From assembly GCA_944326095.1 (NCBI GenBank), contig CALVCO010000002.1:3386-67385 (forward strand): a stretch of 64,000 nucleotides of DNA, written 5' to 3'. Shown here piece after piece: positions 1-26,398 of this stretch (positions are counted from its first letter, which is position 1; every line of letters starts with the position of its first letter). The DNA comes from an uncultured Erysipelotrichaceae bacterium (GTDB taxonomy: Bacteria; Bacillota_I; Bacilli_A; Erysipelotrichales; Erysipelotrichaceae). The translations under genes and the position numbers were made by a program. The notes below the pieces were generated by a model. It was not told the DNA's origin. It did not search any database and saw only the letters and a list, made by a program, of their open reading frames with translations.

Positions 1-40
1 TATAAAAGAGAAAATAATAATTTTACAAGGAGTTAACCAA

Positions 41-715
41 ATGTTGATAAAAGATCTTCCAGAAATAGAAAAACCTCGTGAAAAAGCTTTAATGTATGGT
101 GTTCAATATTTGAGTAATAATGAATTGTTGGCACTTATTATTCGAAACGGTTATCAAAACACTAGTGCTATACAAATTGCTGAAGATTTAATTCATAAAG
201 CAAATGGTATTTCAAATATAAATAGTTTATGTATAAATGATTTATGTTCTATAAAAGGCATTAAAAAAGTTAAAGCTTTAGAATTAAAAGCCTGTTTTGA
301 ATTAGCTAGAAGAATGGCTTTAAGTGAAGTTTCAATGGAAACTAATTTAAATGATCCTCAAAAAATTGTAAAATGGTTACAATTAGAATTAGGTCATGAG
401 TCTCAAGAAAGATTTCTTGTTATTTTTTTAAATAATATGTGTCAATATCTTGCACATAAAGTATTATTTGTAGGTACAATTGATAAAAGTAATATCTATC
501 CTAGAGATATTATTGATGAGGCTTTAAAACAAAAAGCAATTAATATTATTTTAGTTCATAATCATCCAAGTAAAAATATCAATCCTTCAAAAGCAGATAG
601 AGAGGCTACTTTAATGATTATGAAAGCTATGAATCTTGTAGGTATAAGAGTTTTAGATCATTTGATTGTTTCAAATAGTGATTATTTTAGTTTTAAAGAG
701 CATTGTATTATATGA
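41..715 (+). CDS. radC: RadC-family JAB/MPN-domain protein
   Basis: 224 aa. JAMM-type motif ILVHNHPSKNINPSKADREAT near the C-terminus and an HhH-like N-terminal part. SD aaggag upstream of ATG 41; TGA stop. Confidence 0.85.
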   Translation: MLIKDLPEIEKPREKALMYGVQYLSNNELLALIIRNGYQNTSAIQIAEDLIHKANGISNINSLCINDLCSIKGIKKVKALELKACFELARRMALSEVSMETNLNDPQKIVKWLQLELGHESQERFLVIFLNNMCQYLAHKVLFVGTIDKSNIYPRDIIDEALKQKAINIILVHNHPSKNINPSKADREATLMIMKAMNLVGIRVLDHLIVSNSDYFSFKEHCII

Positions 716-16861: not shown

Positions 16862-18334
16862 ATGTATCATATCTCAGATGTAAAAAAATATTTACGATGT
16901 CCTTTGCTTTTTTATAATCATGTGCATAATAAGGAAGAAAAGTATCGACCTTATGTGCGTTTAGATGAAAAGCTAACAGAATTAGCGCGTCAAAAATTAA
17001 ATGTTGAAGAATATTTTTTAGGACAAAAAAATGATGATAAACAATTAGCTATTGATGCTTTAAAAAAATATGATTGGTTGATGAAAGCTCGCTTTGAATA
17101 TGATAATCTAAGAATTAAAGTTCCATTTTTACATCGTACAAGTTTAGGATATGATGTTTATTTTGTATACTGTGGAAATTATCCTAAAAATGATGATATC
17201 TTATTTTATTCTTTAACTTTGTGGGTATTAAAAAATAATCATATTTATATTAATGATTGTTTTATTATGCATTTTAATGCTAATTATGTTAGACAAGAAC
17301 AATTAGATCCTCAGGAATTATTTATTATTAGTGATTGTTTTTATAATGATGCTAATTCAAAACAATATAATATTAAAGAAACAATTTTTAGTAAAATGCG
17401 TAATTATTCTATTGTTTTAAAAGAAATGTTAGCAGTTGAAAATGGGGAAAAACCTAATGCATTAAGAACTAATAAGTGTACTAAAAGAAGTAAATGCTTA
17501 TATTATGATCAATGTTTTAAAGAAGAAAAGGAAATAGAAGCTAATTCGATATTAACTTTAGTAACTTCTCAATATAAATATAAAATGTATGAAAGTGGTA
17601 TTAAATATTTAAAAGATGCTAATATTGATTTATTAGAAGGTACTAATCAACAATATGCGCAAATACAAGCTGATAAAGATGGTGGTATTTTTGTTGATAA
17701 ACATGCTTTAAAGGGTTGGCTTTCTAATATTCGTTATCCTATTTTCTTTATAGATTTTGAATGGGATACATATGCTATTCCTCCTTATAAGGGAATGAAA
17801 CCATATGATGTATTATGCTTTGAATATAGTATTCATGTTTTAAATGAAGATGGTTCAATAGATCATCATGAATATCTTGGTACTCATGATTGTCGCCAAA
17901 AATTAATTGAAAGCATGATTAGTAATTTAGGTAAAAAAGGTAGCATTATTGCTTATAATGCTAATGGGGCTGAGAAAATACGTTTACAAGAGATGATATT
18001 CCAGTTTCCTCAATATGCTAATGAGCTATGGCATATCTATTATCGTATGGAAGATCTTCAAGTGCCATTTATGATGGGAATGGTTTATAATACCAAAATG
18101 CGTGGTACTTATTCTTTAAAAACATTAATGTCTGTTGTAGATGAAAAAGCATATAAATCTTTAGATATCAATCAAGGTATGGATGCAGTATTCAATTGGC
18201 GACAAATTGATTATGGAGAAGATGTTGATAATGAAGAAGTAATAAAGCATCTTAAACAATATTGTGCTATGGATACTTATGCTATGATTGTAGTATTTAA
18301 AAAGTTGCAAGAACTAGTAGCAGATTTCAGATAA
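16862..18334 (+). CDS. DUF2779-type protein: Cas4-like Cys signature plus C-terminal DEDD/RNase H-like domain
   Basis: 490 aa. Cys13 (YLRCPLLFY) plus CTKRSKCLYYDQC (C-x6-C-x5-C). C-terminal blocks FFIDFEWD, AYNANGAEK and YCAMDTYAM. Confidence 0.7.
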   Translation: MYHISDVKKYLRCPLLFYNHVHNKEEKYRPYVRLDEKLTELARQKLNVEEYFLGQKNDDKQLAIDALKKYDWLMKARFEYDNLRIKVPFLHRTSLGYDVYFVYCGNYPKNDDILFYSLTLWVLKNNHIYINDCFIMHFNANYVRQEQLDPQELFIISDCFYNDANSKQYNIKETIFSKMRNYSIVLKEMLAVENGEKPNALRTNKCTKRSKCLYYDQCFKEEKEIEANSILTLVTSQYKYKMYESGIKYLKDANIDLLEGTNQQYAQIQADKDGGIFVDKHALKGWLSNIRYPIFFIDFEWDTYAIPPYKGMKPYDVLCFEYSIHVLNEDGSIDHHEYLGTHDCRQKLIESMISNLGKKGSIIAYNANGAEKIRLQEMIFQFPQYANELWHIYYRMEDLQVPFMMGMVYNTKMRGTYSLKTLMSVVDEKAYKSLDINQGMDAVFNWRQIDYGEDVDNEEVIKHLKQYCAMDTYAMIVVFKKLQELVADFR

Positions 18335-18392
18335 TTATCACCAATTAATTATATTAATAGTGTATAATATGGTTAACAGGAGGTACAATTTT

Positions 18393-18920
18393 ATGAGATT
18401 TGAAATTGTCGGAAAAAATGTAACAGTTACGGAAGGAATGCGCGAAAAAATTGAAGCTAAATTAGGATTTTTAGATAAATATATCTTAATTGATCCTAAT
18501 ACAATTGCTAGAGTTGTTTGTCGTGTATATCCAAATACTCAAAAAATTGAAGTAACTATTCCAACAAAAGTTGGTATTTTAAGAGCTGAAGTAGAACATG
18601 AAGATTTCTATGCAGCTATTGATTTAGCTATTGATAAATTGGAAGATCAAGTTAGAAGACAAAAAACTAGATTGTCTAGAAGACATAAAGAATCATTAGC
18701 TGAAAGTTTTATTGAACAAGATGATAGTTTATTAGGTGAAAAAGATACACCTGTTAAAACTAAAACTGTTAATCCAGAAAGAATGGATTTAGAAGAAGCT
18801 ATTATGAGAATGGAAATGTTAGGACATAGTTTCTTTATTTATACTGATAGTGAGGAAGATTGTATTTCTGTCGTTTATAAACGTAATGATGGAAAATATG
18901 GATTAATTGAAACAGAATAA
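18393..18920 (+). CDS. hpf: Ribosome hibernation promoting factor, long form
   Basis: Start moved to ATG 18393 after SD aggagg. Begins MRFEIVGKNVTVTEGMREKIE; C-terminal dimerisation domain (MLGHSFFIY..YKRNDGKYGLIE). Confidence 0.9.
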   Translation: MRFEIVGKNVTVTEGMREKIEAKLGFLDKYILIDPNTIARVVCRVYPNTQKIEVTIPTKVGILRAEVEHEDFYAAIDLAIDKLEDQVRRQKTRLSRRHKESLAESFIEQDDSLLGEKDTPVKTKTVNPERMDLEEAIMRMEMLGHSFFIYTDSEEDCISVVYKRNDGKYGLIETE

Positions 18921-18931
18921 AAAAAGAAAGA

Positions 18932-18957
18932 GGGCATTCTTAAGGGAATGCCTTTTT
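18932..18957 (+). terminator. Rho-independent terminator of hpf
   Basis: Stem ggcattc/gaatgcc, loop ttaagg, then TTTTT. Confidence 0.75.
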
Positions 18958-18969
18958 AAGGGAAAAAGT

Positions 18970-19803
18970 ATGAGTAAAAAGATTTTATTAATTAATGATA
19001 TGCCAAGTTTAGGTAAAGTAGCATTAAATGCAATGATACCTATATTATCATATCGAGGGTATGAATTATTTGCATTACCTAGTTGTTTGATTAGTAATAC
19101 TTTAGATTATGGAAAGCATAATATAGAGGATACTACTGATTATTTAATAAACTGTTTAAAAACATACAAATCTTTAAATTTTAATTTTGATTGTTTATGC
19201 ACAGGTTTTATAATTAATAAAAAACAAGTAGAAATTATAAAAAATATTAAAAAAGAAAATCCAAATATCTTATTGATAGTAGATCCTATAATGGCTGATG
19301 ATGGAAAATTATATAATAGTATGAATGAGGAAAATATCGCATATTTTCAAGAATTATGTAAAATAGCGGATGTTATTATACCTAATTATACAGAAAGTTT
19401 ACTATTAAGTAATCAAGATATAGATAATATAAAATGTGATAATTTTAAAATTAATAATATAATAAATGAATTACGAAAAATATGTACTTCTTCAATAGTT
19501 ATTACTAGTTGTATTTTGGAAGATAGTAGTCATGGTGTATATGGATATGATTGTAAAAAAGAAAATAATTTTTTCGTGCCTTATGAATATATAGATGTTA
19601 GGTTTGCAGGAAGTGGAGATATTTTTTCGGCATTATTAACGAACTATTTATTACAAGAATTAGATTTAGAAATGGCTACTTTAAAAGCAGTAAAAGGTAT
19701 TGGTGAATTGATTAAACAGAATATGGAAATAGATGCATCGATGCCTAATGGGCATTTTAAGCAAGTACAAATTGAACCTTTTTTATCTAAAATTTTCTTT
19801 TAA
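18970..19803 (+). CDS. pdxK: Pyridoxal/pyridoxamine kinase (PfkB fold)
   Basis: The ORF-track start at 18907 lies inside the hpf terminator, so ATG 18970 is used (MSKKILLINDMPSLGKVALNAM). VDPIMADDGKLY and AGSGDIFSALL blocks. Confidence 0.7.
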   Translation: MSKKILLINDMPSLGKVALNAMIPILSYRGYELFALPSCLISNTLDYGKHNIEDTTDYLINCLKTYKSLNFNFDCLCTGFIINKKQVEIIKNIKKENPNILLIVDPIMADDGKLYNSMNEENIAYFQELCKIADVIIPNYTESLLLSNQDIDNIKCDNFKINNIINELRKICTSSIVITSCILEDSSHGVYGYDCKKENNFFVPYEYIDVRFAGSGDIFSALLTNYLLQELDLEMATLKAVKGIGELIKQNMEIDASMPNGHFKQVQIEPFLSKIFF

Positions 19804-19806
19804 GAT

Positions 19807-19835
19807 TTTACAAAAACTTTACATTTCTATAATAT
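19807..19835 (+). promoter_or_regulatory. Putative pst promoter with Pho-box-like direct repeats
   Basis: TTTACA (19807-19812) and TTTACA (19818-19823) repeat with 11-bp periodicity. The first is 17 nt from TAATAT (19830-19835). This matches the B. subtilis PhoP half-site pattern TT(A/T/C)ACA-N5. Confidence 0.45.
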
Positions 19836-19892
19836 ATATTTGATTTTTAGTTGTTTAAATATATAACGTACCAAGAAGGTATGGAGGAAAAT

Positions 19893-20840
19893 ATGAAGAA
19901 AATTTTATGTGTATTATTTAGCTTGATGCTTCTTGCAGGCTGTTCAAGTACTCCTGCTACAGAAGCACCTGCATCTACAGAGAGTGCTCAAGAACCTACA
20001 ACTGCTACGAGTACGATCAACGTTTATACTCGTGATGCAACTAGCGGAACTCGTGAAGCATTCGAAAAGGCAATTGGTCTTGAAGAATTAACAGCTACAG
20101 CTATCGAAGTAAGTAGCAATGGTGATATGGCTACTAAAGTTGGTGCAGATGAAAATGGTATCGGTTATGCATCATTAAGTACTGATTTTGAAGCAAATAA
20201 TGTTAAACCTTTGAACTTTGAAGGTGTTGCACCTAGCGAAGAAACTGTATTAGATGGTTCTTATGGTATGCAAAGACCATTCTCTTATGTAACTAGAGCT
20301 GCTGGTGATTTTGGCTCAGATGAAAAAGAACAATTAGTTGCTGCATTCATCGATTATCTATGCAACTCTACTGAAGGTATGTTGGTTGTTGAATCAGCTG
20401 GTGGTGTTGTAGATACATCTGCAGGTACTCCTTGGGCTGAATTAGCAGAAAATCATCCAATCGTAAATCAAGATAATAGTGGTATTACTATTTCAACTGC
20501 AGGTTCTACAAGTGTTGAAAAAACATTATCTGCTGCTTTAGAATCATTCGTTCCAATGGCTGGTAACTTCCAATTCGTTATGAATCAAACAGGTTCAGGT
20601 GATGGTCATAAACGTGTATTAGGTGAAGAAAAAGATGGTGTTAATGCTGCAGATATCGGTTTCGCTTCTCGTAGCTTCAATGAAGACGAAGATGTATCTG
20701 GCGCAATGGCTAGTGGTCAATATGCAATCGATGCTGTTGTAACCATCGTAAATGCTAATAATCCATTAACTGATATCACAGCTGATAGCTTGAATCAAAT
20801 CTATTCTGGAACTTTAACAGATTTTAATGCGGTGAAATAA
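19893..20840 (+). CDS. pstS: Phosphate ABC transporter substrate-binding lipoprotein, apparently circularly permuted
   Basis: Start at ATG 19893 after SD ggagg. Lipobox LLAGC. All PstS ligand motifs are present but in rotated order (TRDATSGT and GIGY first; AGSTS, GSGDG and ADIGFAS last). Sits at the head of pstCAB-phoU. Confidence 0.85.
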   Translation: MKKILCVLFSLMLLAGCSSTPATEAPASTESAQEPTTATSTINVYTRDATSGTREAFEKAIGLEELTATAIEVSSNGDMATKVGADENGIGYASLSTDFEANNVKPLNFEGVAPSEETVLDGSYGMQRPFSYVTRAAGDFGSDEKEQLVAAFIDYLCNSTEGMLVVESAGGVVDTSAGTPWAELAENHPIVNQDNSGITISTAGSTSVEKTLSAALESFVPMAGNFQFVMNQTGSGDGHKRVLGEEKDGVNAADIGFASRSFNEDEDVSGAMASGQYAIDAVVTIVNANNPLTDITADSLNQIYSGTLTDFNAVK

Positions 20841-20842
20841 TT

Positions 20843-21763
20843 ATGATTAATGCAAGTAAGGAGAAAAAGAATAAAATAATTGATAATATATTCAAATTCT
20901 TCTTCTTGGCAATGGCGATATTATCTAGTAGCTTTATAGTTATCTTAGTTCTCTTCATTTTTATGAAGGGAATTTCGCCATTTTTACCAGGTTATGAATT
21001 TGGACAAGTAGATATCATTAGCTTTTTATTTGGAACAACTTACCGTCAAGATCAAGGCATTTATGGAGTTGGATTTATCGTTATCAATACGATAATTAGT
21101 GCTTTTGCAAGTTTACTACTATCATTTCCAATAAGTGTATTATGTGCACTATTTATTGTGAAAATTGCCCCTAAGAAAATAGGCGAAATCATGAAGAGCG
21201 TAGTTGAGCTTCTAGCAAGTGTTCCTAGTATTGTATATGGTGTATTTGCAAGTGGTGTTATTGTAATATTTGTTAAATGGCTAGCTTCAATATTTGGGGT
21301 TACTACAGCTGGTGGTAGTAGTTTATTAGCGGTAATTATTTTATTAGCTATAATGATTTTCCCTACGATTACAAGTATGTCAATTACTGCTATTCAAGCT
21401 GTCGATAAAGATTTGGAACATGCTTCATTGGCTTTAGGTGCTACTAAAACCCAAACTAATTTTAAAGTTGTTTTAACAAGTGCTAAAAGTGGTATTTTTG
21501 CTGGAGCAATTTTAGGAATTGGTAGAGCTTTTGGTGAAGCTACTGCAGTTAGTATGGTTGCTGGTAATAAATTATTTGGACCAACTTTTGATTTATTTGA
21601 CATTACTAGAACTTTAACTAGTACAATGCTTGCTGGTTTAAAAGAAACTTCTGGTTTAGATTATGATATACGTTTCTCTGTTGGTATTGTTTTGTTATTT
21701 GTTATCTTCTTTTCTAACTGGTTATTAAATTTACTAAAAGATAGGATTGGTAAGAACTCATGA
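20843..21763 (+). CDS. pstC: Phosphate ABC transporter permease PstC
   Basis: 306 aa polytopic protein. EAA-type loop ALGATKTQTNFKVVL..GRAFGE. Confidence 0.9.
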   Translation: MINASKEKKNKIIDNIFKFFFLAMAILSSSFIVILVLFIFMKGISPFLPGYEFGQVDIISFLFGTTYRQDQGIYGVGFIVINTIISAFASLLLSFPISVLCALFIVKIAPKKIGEIMKSVVELLASVPSIVYGVFASGVIVIFVKWLASIFGVTTAGGSSLLAVIILLAIMIFPTITSMSITAIQAVDKDLEHASLALGATKTQTNFKVVLTSAKSGIFAGAILGIGRAFGEATAVSMVAGNKLFGPTFDLFDITRTLTSTMLAGLKETSGLDYDIRFSVGIVLLFVIFFSNWLLNLLKDRIGKNS

Positions 21764-22965
21764 GTAGACAAGTAAAAGATAATATTTTAAATGGCATAAC
21801 ATACTTATGTGCATTTTTGGGAGTATTATTCTTAGGATCAATTTTAGTATATGTGCTAACTAATGGGCTTAAATTAATAAATTGGGATTTAATTAAAAAT
21901 GATTATTGGTCACAAAACTATTTGGTAGCTGTTACTGATAATGAACCTAAAGAATTTACCTGTGATAGTTGTAATGGTTATTTTTCAACTAAATGGGGGG
22001 TTAGTTTTACTGATGAAGTGACTTCTCATAAAGAAAATGTAATTACAATTGAATATATTGCACCAGGTAGTCCTTTTGAAAATTTAACTAGTTTAACTGC
22101 TGGTGATATGTATGGTACTACTATTCCTGTTGATGAGGGCTATATGATTGAAAAACTTGATTATATAGATAGTCAAGGAAATGCGGCAATTGGTGGTAAA
22201 ATTTTAAAACAGGATGCTAAGGCTTTACAAGAGAGTTTAGATGATGCTAGTGAAATAACCAGCATTTATATTCAATCACCTGGAGAAGGTATTAGAGGAT
22301 CTTTAATTGCCACATTATATTTAATTTTAATAAGTTTAGTTATTTCCTTGCCAATTGGTATTGCTAGTGCTATTTATTTAAATGAATATGCTGATAAGAG
22401 CAAAATGAATCGTTTGATTCGTCAAGGTATTGAAACTTTGACGGGTGTTCCTAGTATTGTTTATGGCTTGATGGGTGTTTCAGTTTTATTCCCAGTTACA
22501 ACTGTTTTTGGTGCTACAGGAACAAGTATCTTATTAGGTGGTTTGACAATGGCTATTATATTATTGCCTACGATAATTAGAAGTGTAGAGGAAGCATTGA
22601 TTGTTGTTCCACAAAGTCTAAGAGATGCTTCATTATCACTTGGTGCGACTAAGTCTCAAACTATTTTTAAAGTTGTTTTACCATGTTGTATGAATGGTAT
22701 TTTAACTGGTGTTTTATTAAGTATAGGGCGTGTTATAGGTGAAAGTGCTGCTTTGATTTATACGATGGGTACCTTTATTAGTGATAATCCAGTTGTCAAT
22801 GGACCAGCAACTAGTTTATCTTTGATGATTTGGTCATTTATGTCAGCTGAACAACCTAATTTTGAATTAGCTTGTGCAATTTCCATCATAATCTTAGCTG
22901 TAGTATTAGTATTAAATATTATTGTTAAGATAGTTGGTAAAAAATTAAGCAAGAATTTTGTATAG
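21760..22965 (+). CDS. pstA: Phosphate ABC transporter permease PstA with enlarged TM1-TM2 loop
   Basis: 401 aa. Blocks IYLNEYA and SLGATKSQTIFKVVLP..GRVIGE. About 120 extra residues lie between TM1 and the conserved GIRGS block. ATGA overlap with pstC. Confidence 0.9.
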   Translation: MSRQVKDNILNGITYLCAFLGVLFLGSILVYVLTNGLKLINWDLIKNDYWSQNYLVAVTDNEPKEFTCDSCNGYFSTKWGVSFTDEVTSHKENVITIEYIAPGSPFENLTSLTAGDMYGTTIPVDEGYMIEKLDYIDSQGNAAIGGKILKQDAKALQESLDDASEITSIYIQSPGEGIRGSLIATLYLILISLVISLPIGIASAIYLNEYADKSKMNRLIRQGIETLTGVPSIVYGLMGVSVLFPVTTVFGATGTSILLGGLTMAIILLPTIIRSVEEALIVVPQSLRDASLSLGATKSQTIFKVVLPCCMNGILTGVLLSIGRVIGESAALIYTMGTFISDNPVVNGPATSLSLMIWSFMSAEQPNFELACAISIIILAVVLVLNIIVKIVGKKLSKNFV

Positions 22966-22980
22966 AAGGGATAAATAAAA

Positions 22981-23736
22981 ATGGATACATGTTTTGATGT
23001 AAAGAATTTAAATTTGTATTATGGTGAAAAACAAGCCTTAAAAAATATAAATATTGATTTATATAAGAATAAAGTTACTGCTTTTATTGGGCCAAGTGGT
23101 TGTGGAAAATCTACATTTCTTCGTTGTTTAAATCGTATGAATGATTTAATTGAAAATTGTAGAATTGAAGGTACTATCTTAAAAGATGGAGTAAATATTT
23201 ATGAGCCTAAAACTGATGTAGTTGAATTAAGAACTAAAGTTGGAATGGTTTTCCAAAAACCAAATCCATTTCCTATGTCAATTTATGAAAATATTGTTTA
23301 TGGACCTAAATGCCATGGTTTAAAAAATAAAGCAGAATTAAATCAAATTGTAGAAAAATCTTTAAAACAAGCAGCTCTTTGGGATGAAGTTCATGATCGT
23401 TTACATGAAAGTGCATTAGGTTTATCTGGTGGACAACAACAAAGATTATGTATAGCTCGTGCAATTGCTATGCAACCTGAAGTTATCTTAATGGATGAAC
23501 CTACAAGTGCTTTAGACCCAATCGCAACAAGTAAGATTGAAGAATTGATAGAATCATTGAAAAAAGATTATACTATTATCATTGTTACGCACTCTATGCA
23601 ACAAGCAAGTAGGGTAAGTGATTATACAGCATTCTTCTTACTTGGAGATATGGTGGAATATGATACTACTTCAATAATATTCCAAAATCCAAAGGATAAA
23701 CGTACAGAAGATTATATTACAGGAAGGTTTGGTTAA
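22981..23736 (+). CDS. pstB: Phosphate ABC transporter ATP-binding protein
   Basis: 251 aa. Walker [10 protein letters not shown], signature LSGGQQQRL and Walker [12 protein letters not shown]. Confidence 0.95.
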
Positions 23737-23741
23737 TATTT

Positions 23742-24377
23742 ATGGTAAAGATGGATAATAAATTAGATAATTTAAAACAAGTTGTCTTACATATGGCTAC
23801 ATTAATTAATAAAATGTATGGACAAGTTTATGAATGCTTAGAAACAATGAATGTTGATAAAGCATTAGAAGTAATTAAAATGGATGAATTTGTCAATCGC
23901 TGTGAAGAAGATGTAAATGATACAGCTATTGAATGCCTAGCTTTATTATCACCTGTAGCTAGTGATTTAAGAAAAGTTATTGCAGCTATTAAAATTACTA
24001 CTGATCTTGAAAGAATTGGCGATTATTCAAAGAATATTGCTAGTTTCGTAATTAAAAATCATGAATTAGATGATGATACAAAGAAAATGACTAAAGAAAT
24101 TATGGATGAATTTCTTACAATGCTAGATCATGCGATGGATGCATATGCTAAAGAAGATAGTAAATGGGCTATGCAAATTCCTAATGAAGATGAAGTTATC
24201 AATAAAAAATTCAAAGAAATTTCAAGAAATTTACGCAATAAACCTGAATATACTACCGAAAATATTATTAATATTGCAGAAATGCTACGTAATATTGAAA
24301 GAGCAGGAGATCATACTAAGAACATTTGCGAACATATTATTTATCAAGTAAAAGGACAACACATAGAATTTGATTAA
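23742..24377 (+). CDS. phoU: Phosphate signalling regulator PhoU
   Basis: 211 aa. Two PhoU repeats (DLERIGDY, NIERAGDH). Immediately follows pstB. The alternative start at ATG 23751 cannot be excluded. Confidence 0.9.
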   Translation: MVKMDNKLDNLKQVVLHMATLINKMYGQVYECLETMNVDKALEVIKMDEFVNRCEEDVNDTAIECLALLSPVASDLRKVIAAIKITTDLERIGDYSKNIASFVIKNHELDDDTKKMTKEIMDEFLTMLDHAMDAYAKEDSKWAMQIPNEDEVINKKFKEISRNLRNKPEYTTENIINIAEMLRNIERAGDHTKNICEHIIYQVKGQHIEFD

Positions 24378-24385
24378 TATAAAAA

Positions 24386-24420
24386 GACTCATAGATTAAT
24401 TTCTATGAGCCTTATTTTTT
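24386..24420. terminator. Bidirectional terminator between phoU and phoR
   Basis: Stem ctcataga/tctatgag, flanked by an A-run upstream and a T-run downstream. Confidence 0.7.
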
Positions 24421-24452: not shown

Positions 24453-25739
24453 CTATTTTAATTTTTTAGGAAATTTTAAATAAAAGGTTGTTTGAATACC
24501 TAAATCGCTATCACATTCAATAGATCCATGATGTAATCCTACACCGTGTTTTACTATTGATAATCCTAAGCCAGATCCTTCTATTGCTGTATTATGAGAT
24601 TTATCTACACGATAGAAGCGTTCATAAATTCTAGGTAATTCTGCTTTACTAATTCCAATACCAGTATCTTTAATCTTGATTAAAACATTATCTTTATCTT
24701 CACTTAAGTTGATAAATACTGTTCCATTAGTTTTATTATATTTGATAGCATTTTGAATCAAGTTATATAAAATATCTTCCATTACATATACTATGCATTC
24801 ACCATATATATTTATATGATGATATATAACTTTTATATTTTTATCAAATATAAATTTATCTAATTTTTCAATGCAGCTAGTTATTAATTGATCATAATTT
24901 GCCATTTCAATTTCTAAATCTATTTTGTTTTCATCTAATTTAGATATTTTTATAATATCATTTATTTTATTAATTAGATTGTGTGATTCATTATAAATTT
25001 TATTAGCAAACATGCGAATATCTTCTTCTTTGGCTATACCATTTGCCATTATTTCAGCATAGCCACTAATAGATGTTAATGGGGTTTTTAGCTCATGTGA
25101 TACATTTGCACTAAATTCTTTACGCATTTCATTATGTAAATTCAAATTATTTACTAATGGCACAAGCTCTGGATAAATTGTGTCAGCATTTGGATGAGCT
25201 AAATTTAATTCATTTATTGGTTTAACTATGGCATTAGCTTGATGCCCGGCTACAAATAAACATATGATAATAATAAATATTAAGATTACTAAAGAAATAA
25301 TAAATACGGGTATTAGAATACCAAAGAAACTTGAAGTTACCATGGCTACACGTAAAATATTGCCATCATCTAATCTTAAAGCATAATAATACATATTTTG
25401 ATCGATAGTATCAGAATTTCGCAATGATTCGCCGACGCCATTTTCAATTGCGGATTTAATCTCTGGGCGATCTAAATGGTTTTCTAAATTGTCATGTTGA
25501 TTATCAAATATTACTTCTCCAATAGGAGATATTAAAGTAATTCGTGGATTAATTAAAGAAATATTATTAATATTGTAGCCAGTATCTAACAAGCTTTTTA
25601 ATTCAATTGTTTCTCTTCTTACTTCATTTTTAACATTATCAGATAATAAATATGTTAAAAAACCTGATATTAAAATGCTAAAAAATAATAGGGCAATTGA
25701 AGTAATACTAATTATGGTAGTAAATATTCTTTTTTTCAT
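24453..25739 (-). CDS. phoR: Sensor histidine kinase, PhoR-like
   Basis: 428 aa. Two TM segments flank an extracytoplasmic domain. H-box FSANVSHELKTPLTSISGY, N-box NAIKYN and G-boxes DTGIGI and GSGLGLSIVKH. Adjacent to the pst operon. Confidence 0.75.
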   Translation of the reverse strand: MKKRIFTTIISITSIALLFFSILISGFLTYLLSDNVKNEVRRETIELKSLLDTGYNINNISLINPRITLISPIGEVIFDNQHDNLENHLDRPEIKSAIENGVGESLRNSDTIDQNMYYYALRLDDGNILRVAMVTSSFFGILIPVFIISLVILIFIIIICLFVAGHQANAIVKPINELNLAHPNADTIYPELVPLVNNLNLHNEMRKEFSANVSHELKTPLTSISGYAEIMANGIAKEEDIRMFANKIYNESHNLINKINDIIKISKLDENKIDLEIEMANYDQLITSCIEKLDKFIFDKNIKVIYHHINIYGECIVYVMEDILYNLIQNAIKYNKTNGTVFINLSEDKDNVLIKIKDTGIGISKAELPRIYERFYRVDKSHNTAIEGSGLGLSIVKHGVGLHHGSIECDSDLGIQTTFYLKFPKKLK

Positions 25740-26398
25740 TAGCCAATTTTATATCCTACACCACGAATAGTTTCAATATAATTTTGATTATCATTTAGTT
25801 TAGAGCGTAGAGTTCTAATATGAACATCAACAGTTCTTGTTTCTCCATAATAATCATATCCCCAGATATCTTCTAATAATTGTTCGCGAGTCATAACTAT
25901 TCCTTGATTTTCAAGTAATTTTTTTAATAATTCATATTCTTTTAAAGTAAGAATAATCTTATTATTATTTACATATACATTATGACTATTGTCGTCTAAT
26001 ACAATATCTTTGAATTGTAAGACATTAGAACGATTATTATTGCGGCGTAATACGGCTTTAATTCTAGCTATTAATTCCATGATACCAAATGGTTTAGCTA
26101 TATAATCGTCAGCTCCTAAATCTAAACCTAATACCTTGTCATATTCACTAGATTTAGCAGTAAGCATTATTACTGGAATTTTTTGATAAATACTATCTGC
26201 TTTTAATTTTTTTAGAACATTTAAGCCACTATCATCAGGTAACATTATGTCTAATAAAACTAATTCACAATTCTTTGGGTCTAAGGCATCAAAAAAATCA
26301 GCAACGCAAGTAAATCCAATTGCTTCAAAACCAGTTTGTTTTAAGGAATATACTACTAATTCCTGAATGTTTAAATCGTCTTCTACTATATATATCAT
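25739..26398 (-). CDS. phoP: OmpR-family response regulator, PhoP/PhoB-like
   Basis: 219 aa. Receiver (DDLNI..LLDIMLPD..KPF) and winged-helix output (RTVDVHIRTLRSKL..RGVGYK). Its stop overlaps the phoR start. Confidence 0.75.
   Translation of the reverse strand: MIYIVEDDLNIQELVVYSLKQTGFEAIGFTCVADFFDALDPKNCELVLLDIMLPDDSGLNVLKKLKADSIYQKIPVIMLTAKSSEYDKVLGLDLGADDYIAKPFGIMELIARIKAVLRRNNNRSNVLQFKDIVLDDNSHNVYVNNNKIILTLKEYELLKKLLENQGIVMTREQLLEDIWGYDYYGETRTVDVHIRTLRSKLNDNQNYIETIRGVGYKIG

Follow-up and report, generated by a model that had tools for sequence, protein, structure and literature searches.

The locus described here raises the question of whether a phosphate-binding protein whose conserved sequence blocks stand in a rotated order is a genuine and working member of its family, how exceptional such an arrangement is, and how it may have come about. 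The gene, pstS, heads a pstC-pstA-pstB-phoU operon in a stretch of 64,000 nucleotides from an uncultured Erysipelotrichaceae bacterium (assembly GCA_944326095.1, contig CALVCO010000002.1, positions 3,386 to 67,385 of the forward strand), referred to below as the window, from whose first letter all coordinates are counted; its 315-residue product is the query in the comparisons that follow. A preliminary description, made from the letters alone, had proposed that this PstS is a permutant of the canonical PstS order, and the analysis bears out that proposal: pstS encodes a real circular permutant and not a fragment. Taken as a whole, the protein is very probably the lipid-anchored binding subunit of a Pst phosphate ATP-binding cassette (ABC) importer, of the short TIGR02136 kind, with a circularly permuted chain, the permutation having most plausibly arisen by tandem duplication, fusion and trimming and being probably neutral.

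For the purposes of comparison, the canonical chain is written B-H-T, where B stands for the N-terminal part, made up of the GSTS, GSG and DIGxxSR blocks together with the hinge strand and helix, H for the central part with the R...SGT strand, the IGY block and QRPF, and T for the C-terminal helices; the order in the query is H-T-connector-B. The open reading frame (ORF), the lipobox and every motif position quoted in the preliminary description proved correct (INVYTRDATSGTREAF at residues 42-57, GIGYASLS at 89-96, ITISTAGSTSV at 198-208, QTGSGDG at 232-238, ADIGFASR at 253-260 and a C-terminus ending in ...TLTDFNAVK315), and the block order that it gave for E. coli PstS is indeed the canonical one. 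The pair of partial profile matches with swapped coordinates that it had predicted was also obtained, with late positions of the TIGR02136 hidden Markov model (HMM; 161-291 of 295) falling on residues 39-170 (E 1e-33) and early positions of the PF12849 model (9-124 of 267) on residues 198-312 (E 5e-24), the PF12849 score of 85.9 bits lying well above the gathering score of 27. The native sequence did not align with a PstS model in one colinear stretch, the outcome that the same description had named as contrary to its proposal. Canonical PstS proteins of solved structure (4Q8R, 4GD5 and 1TWY) each matched in two swapped pieces, query 199-312 with chain residues 5-111 and query 42-137 with chain residues 120-215, and taken together these matches put the swapped order well outside what chance would give.

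Colinearity with the family models was restored only by doubling or by rotating the sequence. When the mature query was concatenated with itself, one colinear alignment ran across the C-to-N junction, residues 198..315 being followed by 38..193; against residues 31-306 of P0132, a relative of canonical order, the doubled sequence gave 47% identity and 248 bits, compared with 151 and 106 bits for the two separate pieces, and the junction was likewise spanned against P0206 (56-293), P0259 (32-259) and P0225 (53-291). Rotation in silico (198-315 followed by 38-197) produced a single TIGR02136 match in which residues 1-288 cover HMM positions 1-291. The protein thus shows the pattern by which a circular permutant is recognised, two homologous segments whose order is exchanged and which align colinearly once the sequence is duplicated.

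Structural comparison leads to the same arrangement in a protein that has already been crystallised. The AlphaFold model employed was alignment-based and reached a predicted local distance difference test score (pLDDT) of 92.4, at least 96 in the mature part, with a predicted template modelling score of 0.84, a model from the single sequence having a pLDDT of 33. Its top Foldseek match was 4H1X, the PstS2 of Streptococcus pneumoniae (SP_2084, released 2012), with E 3e-24, a template modelling (TM) score of 0.87 normalised by target and a root-mean-square deviation (rmsd) of 2.5 over 288 columns, and a phmmer search of the PDB aligned query residues 37-315 with 4H1X chain residues 6-265 in one colinear stretch (E 4e-16), so that the query corresponds to this permuted, SP_2084-like kind over its full length in both sequence and structure. 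The next match was OpuAC, with TM scores of 0.41-0.50. The canonical structures 1TWY and 4GD5 were aligned over 86-92 columns only (rmsd 1.3-2.7), as would be expected when an order-dependent aligner such as Foldseek meets a permutant. The statement in the preliminary description that S. pneumoniae PstS is canonical holds for PstS1 (4EXL/4LAT), but not for PstS2, whose order is H-T-B.

The resemblance to pneumococcal PstS2 extends beyond chain order to the ligand residues, the lipoprotein character and the position at the head of a pstCAB-phoU operon, and the Pst2 system is a functional, constitutively expressed importer of inorganic phosphate (PMC4913102). The two proteins nevertheless differ considerably, since their core identity is only about 29-32%, the pneumococcal connector is shorter and unrelated in sequence to that of the query, and the nearest sequence relatives of PstS2 are proteins of canonical order and not the query; judged from these sequences, the two may be independent permutants.

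An artefactual origin, by misassembly, by frameshifting of a tandem pair or by truncation of a double gene, has to be considered because records of this kind do exist among the relatives, as described below for P0441, a split double gene, and for the contig-edge fragments P0221 and P0219. For the query it is effectively refuted: the gene is preceded by a Shine-Dalgarno sequence of its own, encodes a signal peptide with a lipobox and stops (20838-20840) three bases short of pstC; the 315-residue protein is recorded with identical sequence from other, independent metagenome contigs; more than 300 colinear homologues exist, some of them in complete genomes; and 4H1X is a crystal structure of the same arrangement. 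The earlier view of a functional-looking permutant in place of a fragment is retained, the intact ligand site and operon pointing, at the level of sequence, in the same direction.

The map of the chain (Table 1) indicates what the rotation changed. In the canonical protein a loop joins the '...IYxGxxxxW/F' helix to the 'IxVxxR..SGT' strand, and it is there that the new termini fall, segment B ending in the helix that canonically precedes segment H, so that they are neighbours in a former surface loop; the old termini are bridged by a structured 24-residue connector, modelled with short helices at residues 181-185 and 189-192. The chain accordingly passes from a tether predicted to be disordered to the R47/SGT strand and loop, through the usual second half and the connector, and finally into the usual first half, and fold and phosphate site would be unaltered by the rotation. 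Lipoprotein character is indicated by the signal sequence MKKILCVLFSLMLLAG followed by C17, a cysteine that is invariant in an alignment of 122 permuted homologues (A1), together with a weak match to the LPAM_1 model.

The preliminary description had also held that all phosphate-ligand blocks are retained, and this is what is observed in the same alignment, where R47, S51-G52-T53, R128, G204-S205-T206-S207, G234-S235, S259-R260 and D280 are invariant. Two types of PstS have been distinguished, a D-type characterised by the low-barrier hydrogen bond of Asp56 in E. coli, and an S-type with Ser at that position and a conserved triad formed by a Thr from the N-terminal block, an Asp from the hinge strand and an Arg from the QRPF block, the latter type including C. 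perfringens PBP-1 (4Q8R) and being reported to show micromolar as opposed to nanomolar affinity and lower selectivity than the D-type (PMC13614923). In sequence alignments to 4Q8R and 4H1X, S259 of the query occupies the position of E. coli Asp56 and T206, D280 and R128 correspond to the triad, which marks the query, as far as aligned residues can tell, as a PstS of the S-type in which the site is complete and draws its ligands from both rearranged segments. Since S-type affinity is micromolar, a moderate-affinity phosphate system would be expected here. Binding of phosphate by the query is likewise to be expected from the conservation of its ligands and from the genetics of pneumococcal Pst2 (PMC4913102), and by analogy with the colinear PstS2 of that functional transporter, HPO4(2-) would be clamped between the two lobes by ligands of both segments and handed to PstC/PstA.

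C. perfringens PBP-1 (4Q8R/4GD5) and the V. cholerae protein 1TWY are homologous to the query in both halves (32-35% identity over structurally aligned blocks) and share its S-type site, in which Ser takes the place of Asp56 and is joined by the triad of Thr, Asp and Arg, as well as its role in the operon; they differ in being B-H-T, whereas the query is H-T-B and has its 24-residue connector where they have free termini. E. coli PstS (1IXH), the D-type archetype, shares the type II Venus-flytrap fold and the role in PstSCAB, but it relies on the Asp56 low-barrier hydrogen bond where the query has Ser259, is longer, periplasmic, non-lipidated and unpermuted, and gave no significant sequence match to the query in the PDB search.

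A ligand other than phosphate, such as phosphite, arsenate or phosphonate, with the permutation marking a change of specificity, could be suggested by a TIGR02136 score that falls below the curated cutoff and by the lower selectivity reported for S-type as compared with D-type proteins (PMC13614923). This is very improbable, given that every S-type phosphate ligand is invariant, that the equivalog cutoffs are exceeded by PstC, PstA, PstB and PhoU alike and a PhoR/PhoB-like pair adjoins these genes, that the canonical-order P0132 scores no better than the rotated query, and that the pneumococcal homologue works in phosphate uptake (PMC4913102).

The preliminary description had implied that the arrangement is rare, and in this it was mistaken. 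In a species survey that took one genome per species and yielded 571 stretches encoding relatives, order and neighbours were read from the best 80 loci; the order was H-T-B in all 80, and in all 80 pstC directly followed pstS, mostly accompanied by pstA, pstB and phoU. The hosts belong to Erysipelotrichaceae, Lachnospiraceae, Oscillospiraceae, Peptoniphilaceae, Christensenellales, Peptococcaceae, Varibaculum, Slackia and metagenome-assembled genomes (MAGs) of Spirochaetales, the closest named relatives of the query being 90% (an Erysipelotrichaceae MAG) and 73% (Anaerorhabdus) identical. Homologues of 4H1X with the same order occur throughout Streptococcus (S. pneumoniae, S. dysgalactiae, S. 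equi, S. iniae and S. parauberis) and in other Lactobacillales (Granulicatella, Trichococcus, Carnobacterium and Bavariicoccus); at higher rank the permuted order is found in many Clostridia, Lactobacillales, some Actinomycetota and Spirochaetales. The survey of homologues that had been suggested thus revealed an arrangement that is lineage-wide and, in addition, spread over many phyla. The H-T-B arrangement is common, being present in hundreds of bacterial species, and the query gene is an ordinary instance of it. The accompanying statement that no permuted PstS had been described stands in part: a literature search found no published mention of one, but as it was largely confined to open-access sources this absence is no proof, and papers comparing pneumococcal PstS1 and PstS2 or listing solved PstS structures make no mention of permutation; the solved structure 4H1X and the Pst2 genetics (PMC4913102), on the other hand, do exist.

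The family contains more than two chain orders. Segment HMMs were built from the permuted alignment (H = query 38-137, T = 138-197, B = 198-315), the proteins from an exhaustive search were clustered at 50% identity, and order was classified in the best 150 cluster representatives. Among these, 66 were H-T-B, 36 were canonical (B-H-T, or B-H with a diverged tail) and 10 showed a third rotation, T-B-H (P0139, P0141, P0144, P0162, P0187, P0194, P0197, P0198, P0203 and P0244). The T-B-H proteins carry their own signal peptide and lipobox with the T helices directly after, and end just past the QRPF strand, and are thus genuine full-length proteins. In-frame fusions were found as well, comprising about 10 canonical doubles or triples (527-789 residues) and 5 H-T-B doubles (589-642 residues) among the same 150 representatives, and a dedicated search added 22 clusters of fused doubles, mostly from Acholeplasmataceae. 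In-frame H-T-B-H-T-B doubles of 591-620 residues, in Haploplasma axanthum (locus L082, 5001-6776) and at locus L081 (4540-6402), head complete pstC-pstA-pstB-phoU-regulator operons, and the double closest to the query (58% identity) is among the doubles that do so. Triple fusions that repeat the canonical B-H-T three times were also seen (P0175, 789 residues; P0455, 813 residues), and in a Eubacterium sp. MAG (L043) two separate H-T-B pstS genes stand side by side, with starts close to codons 1980 and 2407 in plus-strand frames, a tandem pair of the sort from which a fusion could form.

Relatedness was assessed by distance methods (neighbour-joining and bootstrapped quartets) on a core of 219 columns from B and H. 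On this core the query is 50% identical to the B-H-T protein P0132 and 51% to the T-B-H protein P0141, compared with 32% to the H-T-B pneumococcal PstS2, which is itself 45% identical to the canonical P0259; similarly, T-B-H P0187 and H-T-B P0192 share 66%, and T-B-H P0139 and H-T-B P0140 share 60%. The quartet joining the query (H-T-B) with P0132 (B-H-T), and PstS2 (H-T-B) with P0259 (canonical), was recovered in 1000 of 1000 bootstraps, and quartets such as ((P0187 T-B-H, P0192 H-T-B),(P0139 T-B-H, P0140 H-T-B)) in 983-1000. Since each quartet of this kind mixes gene orders, at least two changes of order are required within it, and the discordance of gene order with sequence relatedness means that the arrangement has changed repeatedly.

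An alternative is that H-T-B arose once, the mixed orders in the tree being due to the distance methods, to saturation or to recombination between the halves. The Erysipelotrichaceae and Streptococcus H-T-B groups break in the same loop (TIGR02136 HMM positions about 155-161), which a single origin would explain most simply, and the tree evidence consists of neighbour-joining and quartets only. A single origin is nonetheless unlikely in view of the identities and bootstrap values above, and even if it were accepted, several later re-rotations would be needed. The shared break could mean that both groups converged on the one loop that tolerates it, or that they have an older common origin and were re-rotated afterwards.

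The repeated changes are most plausibly, and most simply, explained by a course of events that recurred within the family, in which pstS was duplicated in tandem, the copies fused in frame and the outer, partial ones were lost. The connector of the query has a counterpart in this respect, in that its sequence recurs as the C-terminal tail of the canonical-order P0132 (...APIWENIRSNHPIVDRQ; ...PIWENIRSNHPIV...), a tail that would come to lie between T and B if two copies were fused. Certain records that at first resemble intermediates had to be set aside. P0441 ('T-B-H-T-B', 472 residues) is what lies downstream of a stop that splits a double gene, the 123-residue ORF upstream of it encoding a signal peptide and the first H, and P0221 ('H-T-B-H-T') and P0219 begin mid-protein at contig edges. 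The P0441 locus (L083, 2607-4419, in Mycoplasmatota bacterium CP076021), with its stop after the first H, is either a pseudogene or a sequencing error.

Several points weigh against the reading as a whole. The proposal that the query has the same fold as canonical PstS relies on a model, on partial Foldseek alignments and on sequence; the phylogenetic argument is made of distance quartets on 219 columns from a sample biased toward the query; a truly half-trimmed intermediate was not found among the fused and permuted relatives; and the whole-protein TIGR02136 score is 116.8 bits for the native and 142.9 bits for the rotated sequence, against a curated cutoff of 206.6. With regard to the last point, permutation was considered as the sole cause of the low score and of the generic names given in databases, and this was rejected, as rotation adds only the difference between those two scores and the canonical-order P0132 also obtains 143 bits; because the rotated query and P0132 score equally, the shortfall is attributable mostly to divergence of the clade and partly to permutation. 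For pneumococcal PstS2, which scores 179 bits in two pieces, permutation may be decisive.

Whether the rotation serves a purpose is a separate matter. It may be argued that permutation is adaptive, shifting the lipidated, tethered N-terminus out of lobe I and into lobe II and thereby altering presentation to PstCA or the opening of the clamp, possibly with co-evolution of an additional extracytoplasmic domain in PstA; all three rotations are found in lipoproteins, a similar idea has been raised for the permuted and tethered TpMglB-2 (PMC4990184), and PstA in the clade of the query carries an insertion that is missing from other H-T-B operons. This insertion of approximately 130 residues (about 45-175, window 21892-22284) separates the first transmembrane helix from the conserved core, contains a CxxC motif (FTCDSC), had no Pfam match, and is present only in the query's own operon clade, where PstA measures 400-428 residues (L001-L015 and L081-L083); in other operons with permuted PstS, PstA is of ordinary size, about 265-320 residues, and the insertion is absent. 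Against adaptation, H-T-B operons outside the clade manage with a PstA of that ordinary size, canonical, H-T-B and T-B-H proteins at 50-66% core identity coexist in one clade, and operons with H-T-B proteins and with fused doubles, the two classes whose gene neighbourhoods were examined and all of which head pst operons, share the pstCAB-phoU layout, which indicates that order can flip without a change of partners. An adaptive role is accordingly rather unlikely, and the permutation itself is probably neutral in function.

Natural permutation with retention of ligand binding has precedents in other ABC binding proteins: the glucose-binding, tethered TpMglB-2 of T. pallidum (type I; PMC4990184), and B. 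subtilis OpuAC, which binds glycine betaine, relative to ProX and molybdate-binding proteins (type II; PMC2395249). These belong to other families and differ from the query in ligand and breakpoint, and neither a set of three rotations nor stable tandem fusions within one family are described in the consulted passages of the two accounts. The short S-type PstS family is slightly more likely than not to be a natural hot-spot of recurrent circular permutation, with three lipoprotein rotations, persistent fusions as raw material and switches of order between relatives of 50-66% identity. If this is true and has not been described, it would be among the cleanest living illustrations of 'permutation by duplication', and it would explain the generic annotation of many such proteins, pneumococcal PstS2 included.

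What was known already is thus the permuted kind with its solved structure (4H1X), and what may be new is the family-wide occurrence of three rotations with persistent fusions and repeated switching. For the window itself the permutation carries little weight, as the protein looks like a normal phosphate-binding subunit of a normal Pst importer. It matters more for annotation, where a permuted PstS is matched by the family models as two pieces out of sequence, and numerous records read only 'substrate-binding domain-containing protein'; in the query's clade sequence divergence outweighs permutation in lowering the family scores. Alignments and trees of PstS that are blind to rotation misalign half of each permuted sequence, which affects comparisons between pneumococcal PstS1 and PstS2. 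Natural, closely related triplets of permutants and fused doubles also offer a testbed for the effects of connectivity on Venus-flytrap folding, dynamics and transporter docking, and the rotations could guide the choice of split or insertion sites for phosphate biosensors.

Table 1. Features of the pstS locus, with coordinates in the window
Feature	Coordinates	Strand	Evidence and remarks
Possible promoter: Pho-box-like direct repeat TTTACAaaaacTTTACA (19807-19823) and TATAAT (19828-19833)	19807..19833	+	Weak evidence
Shine-Dalgarno sequence GGAGG	19883..19887	+	5 nucleotides ahead of the pstS ATG; sequence
pstS, 315-residue circularly permuted (H-T-B) phosphate-binding lipoprotein, S-type by alignment	19893..20840	+	Model matches, AlphaFold, Foldseek, doubling, rotation
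Lipoprotein signal peptide, residues 1-17, lipobox LLAG/C (LLAGC at 13-17)	19893..19943	+	Weak LPAM_1 match; invariant C17
Ala/Thr/Glu/Pro-rich tether, residues 18-41, predicted disordered	19944..20015	+	AlphaFold pLDDT 55-61 across residues 1-40
Segment H, residues 42-137, canonical middle: R47, S51-G52-T53 loop, GIGY 89-92, R128 of MQRPF	20016..20303	+	TIGR02136 and 4Q8R matches
Segment T, helical part, residues 138-173, canonical C-terminal helices	20304..20411	+	TIGR02136 match; AlphaFold helices 143-158 and 160-168
Connector, residues 174-197, old C-terminus to old N-terminus, conserved PWxEL...HP	20412..20483	+	pLDDT 98-99; A1 consensus
Segment B, residues 198-315, canonical N-terminal part: G204-S-T-S207, G234-S235, D254-I-G-F-A-S259-R260, D280	20484..20837	+	PF12849 and 4Q8R matches
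pstC, permease	20843..21763	+	TIGR02138, 216.5 bits (cutoff 196.45)
pstA, permease, 401 residues, with clade-specific insertion of about 130 residues	21760..22965	+	TIGR00974, 235.4 bits (cutoff 193.45), residues 175-397 only
pstB, ATPase	22981..23736	+	TIGR00972, 433.7 bits (cutoff 343.2)
phoU	23742..24377	+	TIGR02135, 175.3 bits (cutoff 130.25)
Hairpin resembling a bidirectional terminator, separating phoU from the convergent kinase gene	24384..24413		
PnpS/PhoR-like histidine kinase	24453..25739	-	Best NCBIfam match PnpS, 229 bits, below equivalog cutoff
PhoB/PhoP-like response regulator	25739..26398	-	Best NCBIfam match PhoB, 231 bits, below equivalog cutoff

The claim that pstS heads an intact pstC-pstA-pstB-phoU set is borne out by all four neighbours, which exceed their curated equivalog cutoffs (Table 1). 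A second, canonical pstS was looked for within the window and none was found. The mechanically generated ORF list contains a longer reading of pstS that begins at TTG 19851 (329 residues, the additional part being 19851-19892), which was rejected as the start in favour of ATG 19893, the latter being credible from its Shine-Dalgarno sequence, its textbook lipoprotein signal peptide and the recorded 315-residue protein.

Upstream on the same strand (16862-19803), a 186-residue ORF presumably represents a long-form ribosome hibernation factor and a 298-residue ORF presumably a pyridoxal/pyridoxamine kinase, judging from resemblance, and a 490-residue ORF of no assigned family lies in the same interval. 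Between these genes and pstS, the repeat TTTACAaaaacTTTACA sits 4 nucleotides 5' of TATAAT, at the position of a -35 element, and a promoter scan returns TTTACA-17-TAATAT. The pattern TTTACA-N5-TTTACA is present twice in the window, where 0.45 occurrences would be expected, and 9 of 100 shuffles reach 2, which is not statistically convincing; its interpretation as a PhoP box, made by comparison with the B. subtilis PhoP consensus, is offered as a lead only.

The kinase and regulator genes beyond phoU are convergent with the pst operon, and the same gene pair adjoins the operon in relatives. In most related loci the PhoR/PhoB-like genes come after phoU on the same strand, a response regulator and a histidine kinase both lying downstream on the plus strand in 35 of the 80 loci, and the inverted layout seen here occurs in only 1 of the 80.

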